A stretch of 61,310 bases of DNA, counting the filler, from Sluysia triapertura (lineage: Eukaryota), in assembly GCA_046118255.1 (NCBI GenBank). It is 4 parts of 4 records of this genome, joined end to end, with 100 filler letters (N's around TTAATTAATTAA, not from the genome) between each part and the next. Parts side by side here need not be neighbours in the genome. Positions count along the whole stretch, not along the records: positions 1 to 13,151 come from JBJNIA010056216.1; 3 more parts are not named here. One strand, written 5' to 3'. Positions 1 through 45,300 of this stretch are shown one piece after another. The notes under the pieces are model-generated. The model was not told the origin of the DNA, searched no databases, and saw only the letters and a program-made list of their open reading frames with translations. The translations under genes and the position numbers were made by a program. The stretch's first letter is position 1. Each line of letters begins with the position of its first letter.

Positions 1-2
1 GA

Positions 3-1780
3 ATGCTCACTAAAAAGAATGTAACATTTAAATGGACTGAAGAACAAACTAAAGCATTCAAACAATTAAAAGAAAAATTAACAACACCTCCAATTTTAAT
101 GTTTCAAGATATGAACAAACCATTTACATTAAGAATTGGTGCTAGTAATTTTGCTGGAGGAGCAATACTATGGCAGAAAAATAAAGATAACTTAGAAGGA
201 GTAATATTATATGCAAGTAGAAGATTAAATAAAGCGGAAATGAATTCTACAATAGAGAATGTCTAGCTGTAGTATATGCTTGCAAATTATTCAAACATTA
301 TTTATTAGGTCAAAAAGTATATTTGTATACCGATCATAAACCATTAACTTACTTGTATAACCATAAAGATGAGGTTTACAAAATTGGCAGAATTTGATTT
401 ACAAAAAGTATATAAACCTGGTTCATTAAATAATGGTGCAGATTGCATGTCTCGTCTAACTAATACAGATGAACAAGGAAATGTAAAACAAATTAAACTT
501 TATTGAAATAATGGCTATATCTGGTAAAATTGAAGAATCAAAAGAAATCATTAAACATCAAAGAAAAGATGAAGAAATGATGCATGTATTTGAAGCAATA
601 GCTAAAGGTCTATTAAGCGAAGAACAAGCTAAGAAATTAGCAATAACTGATGGTATATTGCGTTTCAAAGATCCTAAGGATGAATGGAAAACGATAATAC
701 CTAAATCATTAATAAGTCCTCTATTAATTCAATTTCACGATGGCCATGTTAGGTGGACATTTGTCCACAAGGAAAACATTATCAAGTATTAAGAATAAAT
801 ATTATTGGGATAATATGGATGAAGATATAAAACATTGGTGTAAGAACTGTGCAGTTTGTTGTAGAAGAAAGAATACTGGAACGAAAACTAAAGTACCATT
901 AAACTAATGCCGATACCACTTTCACCGATGGAATTTACTGCAATGGATATAATGGGCCCATTACCCGAAACAATTATTGGAAATAAATAAATAATAGATT
1001 ATTTAACAAAATGGCCCGAATCATATTCACTATCCAATCAAAAAGTTGAAACAATCGCTCACATACTGGTAGAAAAAATAATATATCGGTATGGCACATC
1101 TAGAAAGTTATTAACAGATCAAGGAACTAATTTCACTAGTGATGTAATAAAATCAGTCGCTAAAATGTTTAATTTTTGAAAAAATATACTTCGCCATACC
1201 ACCCACAAACAGATGGAATGGTAGAAAAATTTAATAGAACTTTAATAAACATGCTTCAATCATATGTAAATGAAAGACAAAAAGACTGGGATCTTTATAT
1301 AGCTCCATGTTTATTCGCATATAGAAATTCAGTTCATCCAGCGACAAATTTGACACCATTGAATTTAATGTATGGAAGACACGCGAATATGCCTGTTGAT
1401 TTAGAATGGGTACCACTATCATCTCAATATTTAGAAACTCCGGAATACATAACAATAATGAGAGCAAATTTACAATATGCTTGGAAACGCGAAGGTTTAC
1501 AAATACGACATACTCAAGAAACGTATAAAGATAATTATGATACAAAAGCAAAAGCACATAATTTTGAAATTGGAGATAAAGTATTACTGGATTATTCAAT
1601 AGCGAAACCAGGATACTCTTCAAAATTACATAAACCATTTAATGGACCATATGAAGTGATGAAAACAACGTCTACTAATATATATATTAAAAAACCAAAT
1701 GATATAAATGCAGACTTTTGTAGCACATGTAAATCAGTGTAAATTAGCACCAAAAGAAGAATATAACTTAAGAAACACAA
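3..1780 (+). pseudogene. pol: Gypsy pol: RT connection/RNase H and integrase (zinc finger, DDE core, GPY/F)
   Basis: FKWTEEQTKAF..LTTPPIL; YASRRL; LAVVYACKLFKHYLLGQKVYLYTDHKPL; YYWDNMDEDIKHWCKNCAVC; MDIMGPLP; LLTDQGTNF; YHPQTDGMVEKFNRTL; KLHKPFNGPYEV; split by frameshifts and stops. Confidence 0.95.
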
Positions 1781-1889
1781 AAGTTACAAAAAGTATTTTG
1801 AAGGTTAAACCAAGAACCATAGATAGAGATAAACCACCTTCACCAACAAAGAAATCTTCCGAAAGTGAAATAAAAATGATAACTTCTTC

Positions 1890-2215
1890 ATTCAACTCTC
1901 AAAGTCATTTAATACTAAGTATAAAATTTAATCAAAGATAGATGAGAGCACTTATAGATACCGGATCTAATAATACAGCAATAAATTACTATATGTTACA
2001 GCCTTCAGAAATAGTGACGATACAAGATGTAGGATTAAGATTATTTACAGTAGATGGATCAATTATAAAATTTAATGGAATGTTACAATGTCAATTGATT
2101 ATTTTAGATATAAATAGGTGCACCAATAGTAGTTTGGAATTTTTGTCCTTATGAAATATTAATAGGTATGGATGTTATAAGTAAATTAGATAATATTGTC
2201 ATTCATGGTAGACTA
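1890..2215 (+). pseudogene. Retropepsin-like aspartic protease domain downstream of integrase
   Basis: RALIDTGSNNTAI (catalytic D-T-G), flap-like LFTVDGSII, and after a frameshift CPYEILIGMDVI (ILG-x-D motif); same frame as the integrase tail QTFVAHVNQCK, one TAG at 1939-1941. Confidence 0.8.
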
Positions 2216-2379
2216 TGATTTCTAAAGATGTCAGTAAATGCATAAATATCTTTACCACAAATCGTATTAGATAATTCGCCAAGACCATCTATAACTACAC
2301 TAAATTGGAATAACTTAGATTGGTGGGATAGAGATACTACAGTGACATCAATATCTGGATTAGAGTTGAATCATTAAAT

Positions 2380-4480
2380 ATATCAAGAATAGAAAATAAC
2401 AATGGTAATGATGAATATAATAACAGTAATACTAAAAGTAGTATAATGCTAATAAAGGGGATACAGAATAATAATAAATCTCTTTATATTATTACTTTAA
2501 TACTATTATTTATACAAGTAATAACCATGGTAATTTCGAATCCATCAAAATTGATATCGTACACTAATACTACACAAGGATTCTCTGTAGAAAATACTTT
2601 TAATCGGTATTGGTCAATAGAAATAGACATAAAAAATGAAATTCCAAAATATTATTTAGATATGTATTGAATCTATACTAATCCATTCTTAATGAAACCA
2701 CCTTCATAAATAAACAATAGCTATTACTGTGAACATTCAATTTATTAAATTACCATTTTAATAATTTCATTACTTAATAATAAATCCCAAATAGAACAGT
2801 TTAAAGATATGTTTAAAAAAAGTAATAATATAACTATTGAAGATTGTAATCAACCACTAATAAATGAACCATTGATGATCCAAACAAGGAATAATACTAT
2901 TAATACAAATAAAACTACATCAATTAAACAAAAAGGGGATAATAACTATATTTTTATAATAATTCTTGCGATATTTACTTTGCTTTATTTAATGTCTTCA
3001 ATTTATTACAAAGTTGTTTGTAAAAAGAGTTTATAGATCCAAATATTTTGATTTTTACGATTACGACACAAAGATACAAGTTAAAATATTTGATAACAGT
3101 ATCTAAGCACAATGTATCTGTATAAACCCCGCAAGATTTAATTTCAGTATATGGAAAGTTTACAAACAAAGAATACATAAAAATGTATATCCCCAACAAT
3201 TTGCAGTGGTTTTATGGCAACGGATGATAGACACTTAGTTATGTTTGTAAAAAGTCATGCTAAAGCTATTCAACAATTACACTATTCAATAAAAGGTAAA
3301 CGGGAAAAAACAATTATTATAAAGAAGTTGCATAAGGATCCATCAATAACAATTTTATTAATTGCAGGTACTTTATTTATAATAGCAATAATAAGGGCAT
3401 TATTAATGATTGGTATATTTATTACTACTAAATGCAAAAACACGCATTTGTCAAACAATGATGATAACAATAATCACTATTCAATTCCACGAAATCATTC
3501 ATTCTTTGCTCCTCTAGGACCACCAATGATACCACCACCAATTTATGATTATAATAGTAAAACAAGAATTCCTACACATTATAGTGGAATACAGGTGTCT
3601 TCTGTTTTACTTTGTATTTGCTTAACTTGTATTTCTGATACTTATATATCAAAAATCACGAAAAATAGTATAAGTAGAAGAATTCTTTATTAAAATAATA
3701 TGCAACTGTCAATTCAATCAAAACAGATGAGATAATAGCTGTTATTAAAATAATAGAAAAGAAACTGATATATTTATCAATACGATGTTGCCTGGAAAAT
3801 GGTGTATTACATCAACCAATCCGTATAAAACTACTAAGTACTGGATAATTAATTGTGAAGAATTATTGGAATTTCAATTTCATAAAGTTACTATAACTAT
3901 TGAATTAATAGATAGGACAATATATACACAAAATCATTGGATTCAAACCAACCCGTATATATACTTTGATAAAATAGCGATAAAATTCTCAATATTAGCA
4001 AAAGGGATGGTCATAATTTAGTTAAGATAACAAATCCATTAGAAAACAACTCAGATATTATATAAATATAGTATATACTTATGGATTGATAGTACAAAAA
4101 CAAACAGTCAAACGAAACTATTAAGCTGATTCGTTATTATCAATAATACACGTATGGATACTTTAAACTAATGAAACATTAAAATTCTATGTATTTTGGC
4201 CGTTTAAGACACCTTTCAATCTAGTAATACATATTTCAAACATAACAATAAAAAGGTACGTAAGTACTACAAGAAGAAGACATTAAAATCCTAGTAACTA
4301 AAGATAATACTAAAATAACTAATCTACAGAACTGTAATAATTAACATCAATTAACATTCAACAAAATGATATTAAAATTAATGTATATTTCTACATCTTA
4401 ATAAGTATGCTTTATTCTAAACTTATGGTTAATATCATCATAGAAACTATCATAAAATTTGCACTAAACAAAAATAACCT
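2380..4480 (+). pseudogene. Env-position membrane polyprotein (serial signal peptides/TM anchors, N-glycosylation sequons, PPxY)
   Basis: ORFs at 2446, 2809 and 3214 share one frame; hydrophobic stretches YIITLILLFIQVITMVIS, YIFIIILAIFTLLYLMSSI, ITILLIAGTLFIIAIIRALLMIGIFIT, SSVLLCICLTCIS; sequons NTT/NIT/NNT/NKT; PPPIY at 3532-3546. Confidence 0.6.
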
Positions 4481-4791
4481 AAAATACAAAAATAATTATT
4501 TAAAGACCATTAAAGTGTAGGGCATAATGACGTGTGAAAAATGGGCAGTAATCAGTTGGATTTTCTTCTGTCTAACAGGCTGCCCAATTCTAATACTGTC
4601 ATTTAAATTGTAAATATTAGCTGTTAGGATTTTTGCATATATAACATAATTTTTAAGTTTTAACATATATACAGTACAATTTTTAAGTTTTTTAATAAAG
4701 AGTTTAATAATGATTTATTATTTACTTTAATATTATTATTATATTTCGTTTTATTTCATTTTCTTTTACTTCTTTTATTACATTTTAGAAA

Positions 4792-5200
4792 ATGGTTTAC
4801 AAACGTTGCCCCATATACCAGAAATGTATACACAAAAAATACATAAAAATGACTCCATGACACATAGGGCCCACTTTGAGTGTATGATAGGCCTTTTCAA
4901 ACATTTCGTAGAAGAAACAGTAAATTGTCCTCTTTGTAGGATTCAACTTATAAGTATGAATGTATTCCGTAAGGGAACTTTTCTTTACGAATACATCTTT
5001 GAAAGAATTCTACCACATATATTGAAAAGAGGAATAAAGGTACAGGAAGTGGAAATAATACAACCAGAGGAACTCAATAGAAATACTTCAAACACTTTAG
5101 TTGTTCCTCCAACAAATTTCCCTCCTGAGTTGAAGAAATCTCAAAAGCATAGCTGCCGACATAGGGAAGTGTGAAAATTCTACAAGCTGGCAGGACTATA
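4792..5200 (+). pseudogene. RING-H2 zinc finger (E3 ubiquitin ligase-like) accessory gene of the retroelement
   Basis: From ATG 4792: MVYKRCPI(Y)QKCIHKKYIKMTP, a 1-nt deletion at a Cys codon (~4858), then THRAHFECMIGLFKHFVEETVNCPLCR; C3H2C3 spacing once two lesions are repaired. Confidence 0.75.
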
Positions 5201-5397
5201 AAAAAATATCAAAGATTAAGAAAAAATAAATCTTTAAAGAAAAACAATCAATAATTTAATTTCCTTCAATTCTTTTCTTTACTTTATTTTCCTAAAATAC
5301 ATAAAGATAAAATTACCAATTATGAACTAACGATTATTTTTTCATTGTTAACAATTTTTATATATTTTATGTATTATTCTTAGATTTATAAATATCT

Positions 5398-6600
5398 ATG
5401 TCGGATTATCAACATGCACATATAATAAACAATATTAATTCCTTCTATAATGGAATAAACAGATTTTGCGGTAACAGTGATACTCCATTTGTATTCTTAG
5501 ATTCCAAAGCAACTCCAAATTTTCTGAAAAATGAAATGGATATACATTTTATTACTTACCTCTATGGAGTAAAAGCTTTACAAGCACCTTTGAATATTCA
5601 AACATTAGAAGGCTTTCCAGTAGGAAAAGGTATGATTTTAATAGCATCAGCTAGAGGAGCATTGAAAGTAACTTTATTTATTAATAATCTTCCTCTATAC
5701 TCTCGTATACAGGGATTATTAAAAATATAAAGGAAAGTAGAAGCGGAAGAACTACCAATAACATTTGCTGTTCTTCTCGAATCTGATGTTGATAACATAA
5801 ATGTTTGGCAACAAGGTTTAACTTTCACACATTTACCCTACGAAGATATAGCTAATAAGGATTATTTAATATTTGTAGCAATTAATTTGGCTTTGGATTT
5901 TCATGATACACATCAAATTATTCGAGCTGGTTTTACGCCATATCACAAACAATATCATTCTGAAGAATGAGAATTAAGAACTTTCTCAAAGTAGAACATG
6001 GATTAAAGGAAATTGATTTAAAAGATGCGAGAGATATTGCAGAAATATCATATACATGTAGCTTGCTTACCGGAATTTATTATTAGGACATTTCAAATAC
6101 CTTTTGGATGGTTACGTGGCATTATCAATTTAACTTCTACAAATTTCATCCGTCAAATCGCGCTAGGAAAGTATTAAAACTTTTGTGTCCATTTCCGCCG
6201 AGAGATACTTGCACGAAATTAGCACAAGATTATATATCACTTTTTGAATTGATTAAGCAGAGAAATGCATCATTTTTGCCGCAAATAATTGATCAACATT
6301 TGAATAATCAAATTTCATCTACTTCTGCAGCTTCTTTTCTATTACATAATAAAAATTCTGCACAAAATCTTCCACATAAAGGCAAGAAACATTAAGACAT
6401 AACACTCTCCTTGTTAAATGATATGGTCGACGAAACCGCATTGAAGAGACGGAAAATCGAGAATTCGGCAGATAACTAAGTGGAAAAAGGAAATAAGCAG
6501 CAAGTTGATAGTTTTGAAAATTTCGGTACCATTGATTTAAACCTGGATGGTGACGATTTCTTTGATTATGACGACTTTATTTATATGACAAATATTTAAT
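5398..6600 (+). pseudogene. Unknown ~350-400 aa accessory ORF of the retroelement, with an acidic C-terminus
   Basis: Frame 5398-5730 continues past TAA (RKVEAEELPITFAVLLESDVDNINVWQQGL...); further pieces at 6108-6395 and an acidic tail DLNLDGDDFFDYDDF; coding-like composition. Confidence 0.55.
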
Positions 6601-6688
6601 TTTTGATTATATTCTAATGACAATTTTTTTCCTTTATTATGGTAATTTCAATTCATTAGTCATTTAAAATTAGGGACTAATTTTTCCT

Positions 6689-6702
6689 GAAGGGAAAGTT
6701 AT
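6689..6702 (+). promoter_or_regulatory. Polypurine tract (plus-strand primer)
   Basis: gggactaatttttcctGAAGGGAAAGttat directly before TGTAAA, the typical Gypsy 3' end context. Confidence 0.75.
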
Positions 6703-7071
6703 TGTAAAGTTATTTTTAAATATCTTTGTTTAGTATTAGTAAATTAAATTTTTATGGTAAAATAAAATTAAAAAACAAAAGTTAATAGTATTTTTAGTAT
6801 AGTATTAAAAAACAAATAAATATTAAATATTAGATATTTAAATTTATTAAATCATTATATATTAAATATTTAAAATTATATTAAATAATATTTATTTTAA
6901 TATTGAAATTTATTTATAATATTTGTTCTAATGAATTGAAATTTATTTGTTTTAATGAATCATTATTATGTTGATATGAACATTAAACATTAAAATTACT
7001 ATATAAATAGCTTTTTGGACAGAGTAAAATTTATCAGTATTAACTATATTATTTGTTAAGAAGAATTTACA
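6703..7071 (+). repeat. 3' LTR (~370 bp)
   Basis: Starts TGTAAA after the PPT, ends TTTACA (6-bp inverted termini), TATA-like ctatataaatag near 7000; the 5' LTR is outside the window, so the end is unconfirmed. Confidence 0.6.
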
Positions 7072-7339
7072 TTTAAAGATTGATTTTGTCACAACAGAAT
7101 TTGGGAAATTATATTTTCGAAGAAAATTAAAAGATTATATTATCCACAAAAGAAATTATATTAATACGAATTTTTTGAAATTGAAAAATCATTAAGTATT
7201 TCTTTTAAGATAAATCAAAATTATATATAAAATATACGTAAACTTACTAACAAATTAAGTAAAATTTTGTACGATATAAAATAATTTATAAAATCTGTAA
7301 ACTATTAAATATTAATTAATAAATTAATATTTAAAATAT

Positions 7340-7780
7340 TTTATTATATTATACTAAAGGCTCTCAAATGCTTATCGATATTTCAAGAATACTTAAATGT
7401 TACTAAAGTCTTCATTGTTCTAAAGTTCAAAAGTACCTTAATGCTTCTAAAAGTTCTTCGAGTCCATCTCAAGCTTCCATGAGGTCTCAAACCTTTACAT
7501 AGGTCTTTGGAACTCCAAGGTATTCTTTGACTCTTAACATTATTATGGATGTTTTTTCCTTTCATGATTCTTATACAAACGATGATTACAATGTTCAATC
7601 CATCATTTTGTATCAGTTTTTCTTTCATCTAATAATTCTACATGTTTCTCATTCATCTTCTGATCTACAGTTGGGCAATCCCAACACTTACACGTACATA
7701 TTCACACATAAACTCAAATTCACCTTATTACACGAACACGAAATCATTACAATTAAAACTGAAATTCATAGGTTATGAGA
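7340..7780 (+). repeat. Dispersed repeat family A, copy 1
   Basis: Shares ttcaagaatacttaaa with 12070; catctcaagcttcca..aggtctcaa..cct matches the reverse complement of 26790-26845. Confidence 0.7.
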
Positions 7781-8596
7781 CTTAATATAATAAACCACAG
7801 CTAAAATCTTAACTCTATGTAAAATCAATAATACATATTAGGAAGTTCGATAAGCGTCACATGCTTTGTTACTAGTGAAACTGCATCATTCATTGCCTTT
7901 ATTTTGTTACTGCACCCAGTGGAGAGACCGCCACTCCGGTATTACATGTCGTTGTGAGATTGTATTATGTTGTTGTGAATGTTCACTTTTGTTTTTGCCG
8001 GGGTTGCGATTTTTGTGTTTTTCCTTTTTTATTCTCATTATCATTAATATTATTTTATTTTTTTATTACTATTTTTTTATTTTTATATCACAATTCTTAA
8101 TAATATCGATAATTTTTTAAATATGCAACATGTTACTACTGAAAATGATAAAGTCGAAGGCGTTACCTTTCAAAACTGTTACAAGAAAACCGAGAAATCG
8201 AGATTACATATGCTATATTTTACACGTCGAAATCATCTTTAACAATCTCAATTTTTGGAGAAGTGCCATTTTACTATAATAGCTATAATTTTAAAACATC
8301 GCAACAAATGGAACGTCGGAAAACCTACATAAAAAAAGGGAATGTTCAAATTATGAATTCCTATTGACGAAACATGTTTCGGAAAGCTTTATAATTGATG
8401 TTATTGCTTCGGGAGACAGTTTATGGGGTTTTTATCGAATTTCCAACAAATAAATCTGGAGTTTTGCCAATTGTTTATTGTTAAACACGATGGAACCATA
8501 TTACAAGATAATATATACATTATGTCAAATGATTATCAGTTATATTCATGGTACTCACGAAAAATATGCATTATGGACATCGAAGGCTAAGATAAT

Positions 8597-9255
8597 ATGA
8601 ATTATGATGACAAGTTAGAACTAGATGTCTTTAATAATTTGAATGATTTCAGTAAAAGAAAGTCATCCACTGATTCACGTCTAAAAGATAGTGAAATTCA
8701 AAAATTAAATATTCCAGAGAACCACATTTATATAGATACTGGCCAATGGCCAAGATACATGACAGACGAAGAAGTTGATGCTTATTTTAGTTCTAAGCCT
8801 CTTAATGTAAATAAATCTAAAATTAGAAAATCGAAATTGAGTTAGTGGCTAAAAGATGCCGAAAATTTAGAAATTTATGGAAATGAATATTCAAATTATT
8901 TTAAATTTAGTGCTGTAAGATATAATGAGGGCATGAAAAATGGGATATTCGAATTAATCGAACTACCACTTTCAAGCGAAAATAGTTTAAATATTAAAAA
9001 ATATAAAGTATATTTAAATTCTAATGAAGGAGGAGATCAATAATCCAGTTACCGTTTTTCCTGTTAAAGCTACAAAAGTTTCTGAATTTATTGGATTAGT
9101 TTGTTGGACGTGTACTGAAGAAAATCGAAATCCCCGAATTTCGAAGAAATCATTTCAAAATTTTTAAGTTCATATGTTTGAAGATTTTTAAGTATGAATT
9201 ATGGATATTTCGTTGATACAGATTTAATATATAAATATTGTGAAGGTCTGAAGTA
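8597..9255 (+). pseudogene. MAPKAP1: SIN1/MAPKAP1 (TORC2 subunit) N-terminal and CRIM domain fragment
   Basis: HIYIDTGQWPRYMTDEEVD; KSKLS*WLK..NEYSNYFKF; KKYKVYL; NPVTVFPVKATKVSEFIGLVCWTCTEENRNP; VHMFED..VDTD, resembling SIN1 PMTVV..RVQDLIGLICWQYTSEGREP..LHIAEDDGEVDTD; stop 8843, stop/frameshift ~9041. Confidence 0.75.
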
Positions 9256-9287
9256 AAAGTAAAGCAACAGAATAAAGTAAAAGCTTA

Positions 9288-9340
9288 ACGTGAGTTCACC
9301 AACGTACTGGACTTACCAGTTAGGGTCAGCCGTTGGATTT
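9288..9340. repeat. GC-richer structured motif, copy 1
   Basis: cgtgagttcaccaacgtactggacttaccagttagggtcagccgttggattt; near-identical to 46585-46636. Confidence 0.75.
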
Positions 9341-11689
9341 GTAGATAAAAGTAAAAAGAATTTTCTCGAAATGCAATGTAAATTTAAAAACTTCTTTATT
9401 TGGTTTTATTATTATTACTATTACTTTTTTGAAATTTTTAGTAAGTATGGAGGTTTATAAAAATATAATCAAAAAATAATTTAATTGATATTTTACGTAG
9501 ATCCTATGAAAAATATCGTTAATAAGTATTTTACATAGTTAGAATTAAAATCTAACTATGGAAATCTTTTTCGTAGTACTGATTTTATATTTAAAACTAT
9601 TTAATAAGAACGAAGAAATGTTATCGAAAATTTTATTATACAATGACAAAATGATAATTTATCATTCCGTTACAAAATGAAAATAAAAAATAATATAATT
9701 TACGAGATAATTACTATAAGTAATTCTTATTTCGATAATATTTTAGTAAAGGATTTTTCGTGGATCTATTATAAGATCCAAAATAAATATTAAATAGTTT
9801 ACGTGGATTTTTCGTGGATATCACTCGGATATCGGAACTTATTATAAATAAACTAACGGTTATTTTATTAAATCAAAGGTAAATATGGTCAAAAATCTTT
9901 ATATTGGCTCCCGATATATCGAAGAAAAACCACTATGAGTGTACCAAAAATTTATTGTCGAGAAATTATTGGCAGAATTATTTATTTGTTGTTGTGAAAC
10001 TGAAATTTATTTGTTCATTATGTATAGGATTTATTGACCTTGACCAGATTTGAATTTTAATTTATTAAAATAAAAATATAAATTTTTAAAATTAAATGAA
10101 AATTAATATTTAATATTTACAAATTTTATAAACAAAATTAATATTTAAAATATTTACAAAAATAACAATGAAAAATAAAACATACTTTTGAAAAGTCCAC
10201 AAAAATATCATTTGAATATTAATAATAAAAATTCCATAAAAACATTATTTGAATTCCACAAATATTCAGCAGATATACAAGTCAAAAATAAAAATATTCA
10301 GCAAACACACATAACATAATAGTTCATAGTTCATAATACAACATTAACAATATCAATTCACTCCCAAAATTAAGTTTTTAAATCAAATTAATAACAGCAA
10401 CAAAAATCAAATACAAATTACTATTATAAGTGTTCACGTACAATGATAAAAATAACTAAAATTACATAATTAACAATAACATTTGGAATAATATTGGCAG
10501 CACAATAATCCATATAACAAAACCAGGAGTTACGCAACAAACAATTAAAATATCAATATCTAGAAAGTTAAAAAATATGATAATGCTTAAATATTTTCAG
10601 ATAATCTTAACCTAACTTAATAATTGTTAGAATCAATTATAGAATCAAAAATCAAATTTATCAGTTTTCTATAAACAGATAAAAGTAACAATAAAATTAT
10701 TAAAATATTTCAAAGTAACTTTATTTTATTTTATTTTAACTTTATTTTAGCAATAATTATAAAAATTTGATCAGGGATCCTCCCAAAAAACAAGTTTATG
10801 AATATCTAAAAAAGTTAAAATTAAAATTACTAAAATTAAAAATAATAATGAAATTTATATATGAAAATGTTTCAAAATGATAACCACAAAAAATCATATT
10901 TATTTATTAATAATTTAAAAACTATTATGGTTTCTTATTATTACAAAAATTGCTATTATAAAGCCAGCTAAAATATTTTCCTTAAAAATAATTTATTTAT
11001 TTTATTTTATTTATTTATTCTTTTTAAAATAATAAAATAATAGAAATAAAAAAATATTACCATATGCATGGATAATCTCCTGTTGGATGCCTGTACGATT
11101 GTGTTGTAAAATTTTTAAGTTTTTCATTTTATGCTCTCTCATTATCTAATTAATCTCAAGCCTCACAATAAAACACTTTCTCACACAAATCATCAAAACT
11201 TCTTTGAGAATTAGACTGACAATAACAACGTTGACAATTACATTAGGTACAGCTTCATTAGGTACAAAACACAAAAATTTGATTTATTATCAAATATCAT
11301 TTTCTGTTACTCTACTCAATCCCTTTTTACTTAAATTACTTCTCACATTAAATAACAACCAATAATATTATTAATATACATTAAAAAAATGAATTTAATT
11401 TTAGAATTTAATTGATTTTCAATTTTTCATACCCAATCGTCTAATAAAAATGTTTTAAATTTCTTATTCTCAAACAAACCATTCTACAAACATTTTAAAC
11501 TCACTTGTAGATTCTCCTTTTTCATAGCAGTCATCTCATATTCCATTCATTATATTTGTATCATACTAAGATTAAAAATTCAACATTCCATAATTAAGAA
11601 TTAATTAAAATTTAACTTTGCTCAATATTAAGCTTTCCTTGCATGAACTTGGTCAAACCATACTTTCATCAAAAGGTCTTTTCAAAACA

Positions 11690-26639: not shown

Positions 26640-27215
26640 AAATTATGTGCACCTTTACATGTCCAATCGTTGAATAAGAAGCGAGTAAGAAGCATGAAGA
26701 TGCAGGAAAAATTAGTAGAAATTGATGGATACAACATTATAACCATTTCCGGAATAAGAATCATGAAGATTTATAATATTGATATCTTGGTGTTCCAGAG
26801 ACCTATATAAGGTGTTGAGACCTTGTGGAAGCTTGAGATGTACTTGGAAAAACTTTCAAAGCACCCTTGAACTTCTGAATCTTGAGATAATTTAAGACCT
26901 CATTGACCCTTAAGTAATGTTGAAACCTTGATAAGCATTTAAAATCTTTTAATAACCTTATAAAGTTTTGAAATCTTTAAAATATAGTTGAAATAAATCA
27001 GAGTGGTGAAGACGAAGGCATCTAGAACTTCCAAAGCACTTTATAAAATACTAAACAGTTTTAGAACCTTAATAAAACCTTTAAACATAAAAATAAGATT
27101 AAGTCTAAAAATTAATTAATTAAAATCTTAATTGACTTAATTAAGAAAAAATACATCACTGAATAACATTTGAATGCAAAATGGTGTGCCAAAATGGAAA
27201 CTGTGTATGTTTTTG
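26640..27215 (-). repeat. Dispersed repeat family A, copy 3 (inverted)
   Basis: Reverse-complement similarity to 7340-7680 and 11690-12090. Confidence 0.7.
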
Positions 27216-42300: not shown

Positions 42301-45300
42301 AGCCTCCCCGCTTTTTATCTTTAATAATTTTCATTTTATTCGATTCATCATTAAAAATTCGTTATTTACGCCACCTTTTAACCAATTCATCATTTTTAAA
42401 ACGTTTCCGTGTTTAACTTTTTTGAGTTCTGGATAGCGCATAAAAATATTAATATTTAATTTCAATTAAGTTTGTTCAATTAAAATTGTTTATTACGGGA
42501 TTTGGATTCAAAATCAACTTTGTACGTTTTTTTTAATTTTAAGGCAATTCGGTTGTAATTAAAAAAGTATATAAAATCTACAAAGACGAGAATAAACTTA
42601 AATCGAAAAGATATCTAGTAATTAAAGAAAACAATAAAAAAGAAATAAACCGATTTCTGTATGACACAGTTGAATCTATGTAGATTGAACATTCAAGATT
42701 TAACAAGGAAACTTTGGATGACTAAAACAGAAAAATGTAAAATACTGGGTGTCTCAATAGTACCAGAACCGCAAAATTAAATAAAAATTAGACATCAAAA
42801 ACGACAAATTTAATAGGTATATTTAGTATTTACGAATGCGATGGGGATTCTCACTGTCCCGATAAACATATCCATTCACTCCATAAGATGCAATCTGGAA
42901 AATCTGATGATTATTTACAAAATCGTAAAAATTCTAATCGATTATCCGGCTCGTCCTCATTTAGGGCGATAAGGTTTTAGACCAATGTCATGCAAGATAA
43001 GGTGGAGTGAGGTTCGAAGCATGTCCAGCTATTTCGATGCCTGGCGGAAAGATTTTTTAGGAGAATGAACAAATGAAACTGCCACTAATCTCAGTTTTCG
43101 GACGACCTTTAAGAGCATTTGGATACAAGATTGAACATTGTCGACTTACTCGGCATCTTTCTTCAACATGCTTGTAGCTACTCCTTAATAACGAAGATAC
43201 GTTCATTTAAATCTAAAGTCCTTTGCCTCATTTTTTAGAATGAGAGTCTAGGAGCGCAAGCTTAACAAAAATCAAGCAATGACATCAGAACAAAATAAAT
43301 AAGATCAAGCAACAAGAGTCATTCGCAAGATTCTACTATTCGCAGAAGAAAGTGAATAGTAGCGAAGATAACATCAAATCTGTTTTAAAATAAGAAATTG
43401 CATTTGTCATTTTTGATATCTAATTTTTATTTTAGTTTGCGGTTCGGTTATTTTTGTTTATATTATATCGAATGCTTTAAGTTATGCAAAAATTTTTAAG
43501 GATTGCATATTTTATAAAATAAAACTAAAACTCGAAAAAATTATTTCGTGAATGTCGCTGAAAATAGTAACGTAATGTGATAAAAATGAATTCGTTCAGT
43601 ATACTTCAATATTTATTTATATAGTCGCATTATAATTGTAAAAATATTGCACATTGACTAAATTACAAATAATTTCCTGATTAGAACATAGAATAATAAT
43701 ATTTTGTTTTCCGCATCAATAAAATAAAGTAAAAATGTATTGAAGGTTTCGCAGGGAAGTCAAAGTTTTGGTGAGCTAGGAATGTGACATTCATACGGGT
43801 CTTTAAAAATTGTCACGAAATCTGTGCATATTATATTATCAATATTTATTCGAAAATTTTAAAAATCGAAAGATTATTTTACTCAAATTAATTTCACTAG
43901 ATATCTTAATATGATAAGTATCAAATTTAACTGTTTAATTCAATAGATACATATATTTCGATAGATTCGATAGATATATAATTTCAACTAGGTGTAGATT
44001 CAAAATTGTTCTTTACAATACGTTGGGCTTTAATTTATTATTTAAAATAATTGTAAGTTCCACAAAAGAACCGATGTAATTATTGTATTGACTGAAAATC
44101 GCATTAATCACATATTTCTTACACATTACTCACTTCTATAAATCCAATGGAGGAATATTTTAATTTTTTCAAGTCTAAATTATCCTCTTCGGTTTGATTT
44201 AAGTATAAAGATGTTGGAAATTTTTACCAATGGTTTCGCGACACGAGAATTTATCTGATAAAACTTAATGAAAAGAGTTTTATTTTTATAAAATTTGTTC
44301 GATTTAAAATTAATTTATTTGTAAAATCTATCCAAGTATTGTTTTTATGCAAAACTGTCTGTTTATGCTTAATATAGCACTTTAACGTTGCCCTCTAGCG
44401 TTTGAAGATCTCATCGTCTTAGCACTACAAGCAGCTCCACTAATGGTTGATAAGTAGATGATGAAAATAAATCCTGTAAAAAAACGTTCAACTAATTCAA
44501 TGAATACATTTTTTCAGTCGTGAAAATATTCGAAAGGATTTCATTTGAGTTGGCAATGTATACTCTTTCAAATTTAACTTCATCTGACACTTCAAAATTA
44601 TTAAAATTTAAAAATTGCAACTAGACAACTAATTTCCATTAATTAGACAACTTTTCCATTAATTTTATATGCAATTCTGTCTAGATCTCTGTAGATTTCT
44701 AATTCTTGCAAGGGGCAGGGTTAATTTATCTCGCCAACCAGTTAGAATTCAGTATTAAAAAGTCTGTAAATGAATTTTTACGAATTACGTAATTTTGATA
44801 CAATAATATGATTTTCCAATAAAATGAACAAAATCTGAATTGCAGGATTACCATTATGATTACTAATAAACAATACAATGATTAAGTACTTCCTACTATT
44901 ATGATTCATAAAAACAGGCCACTGAACCCGGAAGTGGTTTTATATTTATTAAAATTGTTTCTAAGTCTGATTTCTCGTTTTGTGTGCAAATATCTAGCTA
45001 TTTTCATCATCAACAAAGGTGTCCGAAATATTTGCTTTATCTTCATGTGTGCTTTGATAACTTTTTTGATGAACATTACCACTGACATTGTTTAATTCCG
45101 TTTCTTAAAAAATAAACTGAATCATTTTTATCATTATAATTATTGTTCTCTTATTTGAAATAAATTATTTCATGACGATATGTTAATCATTCATTGTTAT
45201 GTAGATTATGAGTCATATTGATAATCCTACAATCCACTACATTGTGTCAATTATATTGGAGAATTATGTTATATCAAAATTGTCTCGCTCTTGTGTGATG

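Follow-up and report, generated by a model that had tools for sequence, protein, structure and literature searches.

The probable 3′ half of a decayed Ty3/gypsy element from Sluysia triapertura, with a pol extended beyond the integrase

The DNA analyzed here, termed the window, is a stretch of 61,310 nt from the Sluysia triapertura assembly GCA_046118255.1. It is made of parts of four records joined with filler, and the element under study occupies positions 1–7071. A single repeated Ty3/gypsy element, now decayed, is probably represented here by its 3′ half, and it likely belongs to the Burro-like lineage of flatworm type, with the order gag-env-pol. Past the integrase, its pol extends through a second protease and then a membrane region; behind pol come two accessory genes, likely spliced, and what is likely a long terminal repeat (LTR). 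The modules lie in this order on the plus strand, divergent copies of the region were found, and intact relatives had the same layout. The 5′ half of the element, and with it gag, env and the reverse transcriptase (RT), falls outside the window. Every gene of the element carried stops or frame changes, and the window copy is dead.

A first-pass annotation, made from the sequence of the window, had described a gypsy element built like a complex retrovirus. The 3′ accessory genes and the acceptor-like sites agreed with that layout.

Pol and its extension behind the integrase

Pol entered the window with the end of the RT connection and the RNase H (3–470), which matched PF17919 (E 1.7e-22) and PF17917 (E 1.8e-9) on 3–263 and was broken by stops and frame changes. 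The integrase followed at 487–1790, with a GPY/F-SH3 end, a VHVN..YNLR tail and frame breaks near 790, 900, 1175 and 1715. Its core (991–1176) matched the Pfam family rve (E 6.1e-6), and its end (1173–1739) contained the GPY motif and matched SH3_Tf2-1 (E 0.015). The order, RNase H then integrase in the window and RT-RNase H-integrase in the relatives, is that of Metaviridae (Ty3/gypsy). The window integrase was about 44–58% identical to those of its relatives.

The first-pass annotation had placed the GPY/F end of the integrase near 1740. The GPY/F end was indeed present there, but the integrase tail did not stop. The tail shifted frame near 1715 and was then open, except for one stop at 1939, into a second retropepsin-type protease (1918–2203), in frame with the tail. 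The protease carried DTG at 1957–1965; a single stop preceded it, and its frame was broken near 2120. Profiles of the relatives' proteases matched at 1918–2109 (independent E value, iE, 2.9e-8) and 2126–2197 (iE 0.0014), the best among 414 six-frame chunks. The extra protease proposed in the annotation was thus confirmed. With tblastn it matched the integrase-related protein P0004 (E 1.5e-9) and the integrase-related metagenome locus L011 (E 1e-6); P- and L-numbers are labels of this analysis. Pfam alone gave only E 0.058.

The region from 1741 to 6600 has a coding signal on the plus strand. When the stops in the best frame of each 300-nt bin were summed, the plus strand had 47 and the minus strand 79. 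Resamples gave 92.7 ± 6.5, and 0 of 300 were as low as 47. These counts, together with the hydrophobic segments, the RING pattern and the protease profiles, bore out the annotated stretch of co-oriented, decayed coding modules behind the integrase.

Copies of the region were sought in one sequencing run that held 27% of its words, with contigs placed at 80% likeness. The summed depth was 471–9884 over 1801–6600, against 117–126 in the flank at 8101–8700, and single contigs had 13–25; these depths do not translate into copy numbers, and the window itself may derive from this run. Copies 81–87% identical covered 1647–1960, 2700–3005, 3341–3654 and 3927–4246, and the one over 1647–1960 reached from the integrase tail into the beginning of the protease. 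Of 238 joints, the 15 with the strongest support had depths of at most 33 each; therefore, none skips a module at family depth. Copies lacking the extra region, which the annotation had named as evidence against its proposal, were not met with at that depth, and the divergent copies covered parts of the region.

The window integrase found 45 proteins and 80 metagenome loci. A tree built quickly from 83 rows (the window, the 45 proteins and 37 of the 80 loci, L009–L045; no retroviral reference) placed it in a group of 22 rows with a support of 83 in the SH-like approximate likelihood ratio test (SH-aLRT), which is moderate and comes from a quick search only. After the integrase and in the same frame, 13 of the 21 relatives in the group had a membrane segment and six a protease motif. 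None of the 61 rows outside the group had either. In the count of membrane segments, that of P0014 is questionable, and several of the rows that lack one are truncated or broken. To judge from these predicted products, the extension of pol behind the integrase is a trait of the lineage.

P0005 and L015 had the order seen in the window, namely integrase, protease, signal, ectodomain, anchor and tail. P0006 had two proteases behind the integrase, and L011 and L012 added ankyrin repeats. In the latter two, pol continued behind the integrase with a protease, a degenerate protease-like repeat and the ankyrin repeats before the membrane part. The protease and its repeat could, by eye, form a single-chain protease dimer. 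A close relative of the integrase was not found in viral contigs, which yielded eight weak loci. One member of the group, P0008, was deposited under the name of a bacterial metagenome-assembled genome, likely through contamination of that bin.

The membrane region and the position of the envelope

Behind the protease, hydrophobic segments at 2479–2535, 2947–3003 and 3352–3408 scored at least 2.4 (three seen, 0.08 expected; 0 of 200 resamples), and a further one at 4548–4604 scored 2.2. Module 1 (2479–3003) comprised a signal-like segment (2479–2535), an ectodomain-like stretch with six N-glycosylation sequons and an anchor-like segment (2947–3003); no homolog and no fold were found for it. Module 2 (3033–3693) was broken. 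It held the segment at 3352–3408 and a Pro-rich stretch with PPxY at 3535–3546, around which the topology is uncertain. Module 3 (3694–4620) was heavily broken and strand-rich, ended in the segment at 4548–4604, and appeared like fibronectin type III (FN3) by eye only. Among 12 relatives, three had a PPxY motif (PPSY) behind the last membrane segment.

The ectodomains of most relatives were repeats of a unit of about 90 residues with two Cys and an FN3-looking end; the alternative was a small Cys-rich domain. A C-terminal FN3-like membrane domain reportedly appears in the figures or extended data of Grohme 2018. On the membrane region of the window, the profile of the repeat unit reached at best 14.8 bits (3854–3898), below the background of 18.7 bits elsewhere.

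The first-pass annotation had taken the membrane polyprotein for an envelope. Two relatives of the integrase group were long enough to show where env lies, and in both an env of the gB/chuvirus (HSV/gB) type was upstream of pol. P0054, a protein of 3735 aa and a cluster mate of P0007, contained Gag, a gB/Monjiviricetes env (PF24664, E 1.2e-91), two proteases, RT, RNase H, integrase, signal, ectodomain and anchor. L013 was alike (PF24664, E 4.7e-94); it had an additional membrane module, and three proteases preceded its RT. The motifs ELREF and HVYQE of the P0054 env occurred, in the accessible part of the alignment supplement of PMC13524379, only in rows of S. mediterranea (two and three places).

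The env sequences of the relatives had no match in the window. A fusion glycoprotein as the third open reading frame (ORF) behind pol, as in classic errantiviruses, was not found either: no F- or gB-type match was obtained in the 3′ region, where the decay lowers the sensitivity of the test. Env lies upstream of pol in these two relatives, and no fusogen match was found in the window; the 3′ membrane region therefore most likely does not act as the fusogen, and its annotation as an envelope was not supported.

L013 (2–10279) and P0011 showed a second signal-ectodomain-anchor module before the last protease preceding RT, so that such a module stood on both sides of pol. A BCL2-like domain suspected by eye in L013 was not supported by follow-up searches.

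Candidate accessory genes and LTR

A T-rich splice-acceptor-like site ending in TAG (4772–4788) was found 3 nt before the start codon of a separate RING-H2-like gene (4792–5174), which was broken by a frame change near 4850. The pattern of the C-terminal half of the RING (4863–4937) was the sole match in six frames of 61 kb, and occurred in 0 of 400 resamples; zf-RING_2 matched at E 0.021. The N-terminal part lay in another frame, so that Cys/His at six of the eight ligand positions were counted across the break. The gene is likely a RING gene. An intact RING gene (PF00097, E 1.2e-6) was the first gene after pol in L010, the same position as in the window. The annotated RING E3 therefore stood as a likely RING, short of two ligands. 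We infer its ubiquitin-ligase role, and that of PPxY as a budding signal, from these motifs.

A second acceptor-like site (5367–5383) preceded the start of the last gene by 14 nt. This gene (5398–6599, about 400 codons, broken) would encode a likely strand-rich N-domain, a degenerate DEDDh exonuclease-like domain, a basic KRRK (6444–6455) and an acidic end. In a frame-aware scan of 60 kb, it ranked first for the relatives' N-domain (5437–5676, 22.9 bits; next 20.7). It also ranked first for their exonuclease domain (5949–6047, iE 0.31, 23.8 bits; next 20.7). The two matches were colinear, in the order of the relatives. The N-domain profile gave no match to the gene by hmmsearch, and first rank came only from the frame-aware scan and hhalign. 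No homologs of the gene were found among 54 candidates or in viral contigs. By these ranks it is probably a degenerate exonuclease gene.

Genes combining a strand-rich N-domain with an exonuclease domain were carried by L009–L013 and L015. RNase_T matched in three of the seven full-length ones scanned, and their profile matched ISG20L2 (E 1.3e-20). A model of the L011 gene, with a predicted local distance difference test score (pLDDT) of 71, superposed on ISG20 with Z 19.7 and a root mean square deviation of 2.1 over 157 aligned positions. The acidic catalytic residues were missing in some of these genes. Searches for more homologs of the N-domain returned five proteins, all near the input, and no usable match in the Atlas. 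Hits to the exonuclease domain took up the fold searches, and the cupin/AlkB rows besides were weak (E about 0.006).

In L011 (7268–10371) and L012 (6861–9920), two N-domain/exonuclease genes stood in tandem. The acidic catalytic residues were present in the second and absent from the first, a possible pair of active and inactive enzymes. L011 had a third 3′ gene (10906–11517) with a weak ubiquitin/SUMO-like match (E 0.04–0.1).

Of 12 3′ genes in the relatives, six had a T-rich YAG 0–1 nt before the ATG; among other ATGs, this was the case for 8 of 1125 and 11 of 939. The rule was set post hoc, after the sequences had been seen, and L011 and L012 are close kin.

A polypurine-tract candidate (6689–6698) was followed by a 3′ LTR candidate of 369 nt (6703–7071). 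The latter ran from TG to CA with a 6-nt terminal inverted repeat (TGTAAA at 6703, TTTACA ending at 7071) and had TATAAA at 7002. TTACA has a frequency of 2.8 per kb, which weakens these ends as evidence. The purine tract and a TG..CA candidate of the annotated LTR were present, but no second copy was found within the window and the depth was below that of the element interior. In the loci of five relatives, no purine tract with TG was found behind the last gene. The stretch 6703–7071 is a likely, though only putative, LTR.

Alternatives, known systems and the neighbouring DNA

The layout suggests how the products might be made. One long polyprotein would be threaded through the membrane of the endoplasmic reticulum with several crossings. 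On the luminal side, the internal signals would be cleaved by signal peptidase; on the cytosolic side, cleavage by the protease behind the integrase would separate RT-RNase H-integrase from the membrane portion. Membrane modules of the relatives likewise had proteases next to them: after env, after the upstream membrane module and after the integrase. The released type I membrane protein or proteins would likely be attachment or host-modulating surface proteins, not a fusogen, and a gB-type env, located upstream of pol and beyond the window, would carry out fusion.

For the RING gene and the N-domain/ISG20-like gene, the proposed templates of translation are spliced subgenomic RNAs, each with its acceptor immediately ahead of the ATG and joined in cis or in trans to a host leader. 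Their products would likely counter host defence by ubiquitination of proteins and by binding or trimming RNA ends such as those of small RNAs.

Several results weigh against the proposed element, besides the limits given above for the depths, the tree support and the acceptor counts. One frame of 2332–5931, with X at the stops, matched none of 1.84 billion representatives. The membrane region of the window had no significant match to the relatives' ectodomains, and module 1 folded as a single sequence with a pLDDT of 37. The FN3 assignment in the relatives is a lead only (Atlas, FN3 clan, 0.86), and the profile of their repeat unit matched no PDB chain. The window RING was not significantly like that of L010 (E 0.02–0.04). 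The homology of the last gene was weak (hhalign probabilities 6%, 2% and 1%; hmmsearch iE 0.31), and its likely first catalytic motif lacked acidic residues. In the two bins that contain the LTR candidate, the depth was 596 and 240, below the element interior, although a higher value is expected of an LTR.

It was considered unlikely that the envelope is the 3′ membrane region itself, as a new type of fusogen with a PPxY budding signal in a gag-pol-env virus. The position of this region after pol is that of env in ordinary errantiviruses, it has several membrane segments, sequons and PPxY, its ectodomains are unlike those of the relatives, and no upstream env is visible for the window copy. 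On the other hand, the fusion-protein and env searches described above were empty, the luminal stretches are short (140–300 codons), module 1 has two Cys, and two relatives hold both the upstream gB env and the module behind the integrase. A somewhat better chance, still small, was given to a polycistronic RNA from which the 3′ genes are expressed through spliced-leader trans-splicing instead of cis-splicing, with the rest of the proposal unchanged. Spliced-leader trans-splicing occurs in flatworms and nematodes. The AG directly before the ATG in 6 of 12 of the relatives' genes and the spacers of 170–410 nt would fit operon-like processing equally.

We held it improbable that the 3′ cargo is passive, being captured host sequence (transduced gene pieces) without a role in the cycle of the element. 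The ectodomains and accessory genes do vary greatly among the relatives, and the available part of PMC5408684 describes extra ORFs of rotifer elements without clear departure from neutrality. Against this, the protease and membrane frame is open in relatives with just 45–60% integrase identity, the 3′ genes of relatives are intact and start at acceptor-like sites, and a host homolog was not found. Least credible of all was an origin of the modules as independent nested insertions or through chimeric assembly. The whole stretch is not spanned by any single contig, the 5′ LTR and the target duplication are outside view, and a host gene (ST7, below) is also frame-shifted, so that assembly errors may exist. 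But the modules are all co-oriented, the integrase tail and the protease share a frame, the junction between these two is bridged by a divergent copy, no joint has high depth, and L010 and L015 have the same order. The repeated copies and the same kinds of module in intact relatives spoke for a single element, as the annotation had assumed.

The annotation had also seen no described lineage in this combination. This did not hold: the lineage itself is known, and the layout of the relatives matches planarian Burro/GYPSM1 (PMC6431247) and the GAG-ENV-POL elements (PMC13524379), as far as the accessible parts of both sources go. Burro/GYPSM1 encodes a huge polyprotein in which an in-frame env separates gag from pol, and it has ankyrin and ubiquitin-related modules as well as accessory ORFs (PMC6431247, in part). 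P0054 and L013 resemble it in the env before pol, and L011 and L012 in the ankyrin repeats. In contrast, no protease behind the integrase, membrane protein, exonuclease gene or splice acceptors are described in the parts of that account available. Burro exceeds 30 kb and has long LTRs, against 369 nt for the present LTR candidate. The window part showed no MATH, BIR, BCL2, SUMO-like or ankyrin module, and a SUMO-like match in L011 reached E 0.095 only.

GAG-ENV-POL errantiviruses with HSV/gB-type env are reported from Platyhelminthes, Bryozoa and Nematoda (PMC13524379, in part). The env of the relatives is likewise of the gB/Monjiviricetes type and has short motifs in common with S. mediterranea errantiviruses 1–4 in that material. 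The words 'accessory', 'exonuclease', 'splic', 'fibronectin' and 'second protease' do not occur in its main text as available. The bdelloid rotifer LTR elements Juno and Vesta carry a 3′–5′ exonuclease gene or a small membrane ORF behind pol, as here (PMC5408684, in part). Their exonuclease is a single RNase D (DEDDy) ORF3 in that account, whereas here an ISG20/REX4-like DEDDh domain is fused to the strand-rich N-domain, as many as three 3′ genes occur, and pol is extended.

The element resembles complex retroviruses in its several 3′ accessory genes, behind likely splice acceptors and with a likely counter-defence role. It differs from them in that the extra proteases and the pol-fused membrane protein are not retroviral. 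The retroviral type of pol and an env after pol were not found: the integrase relatives are gypsy-type by Pfam and have env before pol, and the tree contained no retroviral reference. Several 3′ accessory genes are known from complex retroviruses such as foamy viruses and lentiviruses, to which those found here form a parallel.

Burro-type elements are suspected proviruses, and the published accounts, in the parts accessible, stop at gag, env and pol. No account of the protease and membrane cassette behind the integrase, the FN3 module or the acceptor-led RING and ISG20-like genes was found in the literature on these elements as far as it was available; Repbase and Grohme 2018 may cover part of it. 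The 3′ side is modular and lineage-wide. It offers candidates, open to test, for the attachment, polyprotein-processing and counter-defence functions of an invertebrate retroelement. The useful material is the intact relatives, not the dead copy in the window. Tentatively, and with less than even confidence, the lineage might represent true enveloped viruses of invertebrates that reached the organisation of complex retroviruses independently. Besides a gB fusogen, they would have a separate attachment protein that is fused to pol and bears FN3-like repeats, several proteases cutting a membrane-threaded polyprotein in cis, and spliced ubiquitin-ligase and ISG20-like nuclease genes against host RNA and protein defences, and would deserve a taxon of their own beside Metaviridae.

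The window is AT-rich animal DNA with ST7, THADA and TRM7-type genes. The Pfam match of the host ST7 gene (14901–15364) fell in two overlapping frames (profile 27–90, then 83–166) without an intron between, through either an assembly indel or a pseudogene. If this frame change is an assembly error, some of the breaks in the element may be errors too. Rfam gave no match in positions 1–9000. An inverted pair of a repeat with internal sub-repeats, about 73% identical, was found at 14071–14797 and 42747–43455. Directly behind the LTR candidate, at 7201–7800, a different and extremely abundant repeat began, with a summed depth of 194,000–330,000 and relatives at 26671–26977 and 11995–12090.

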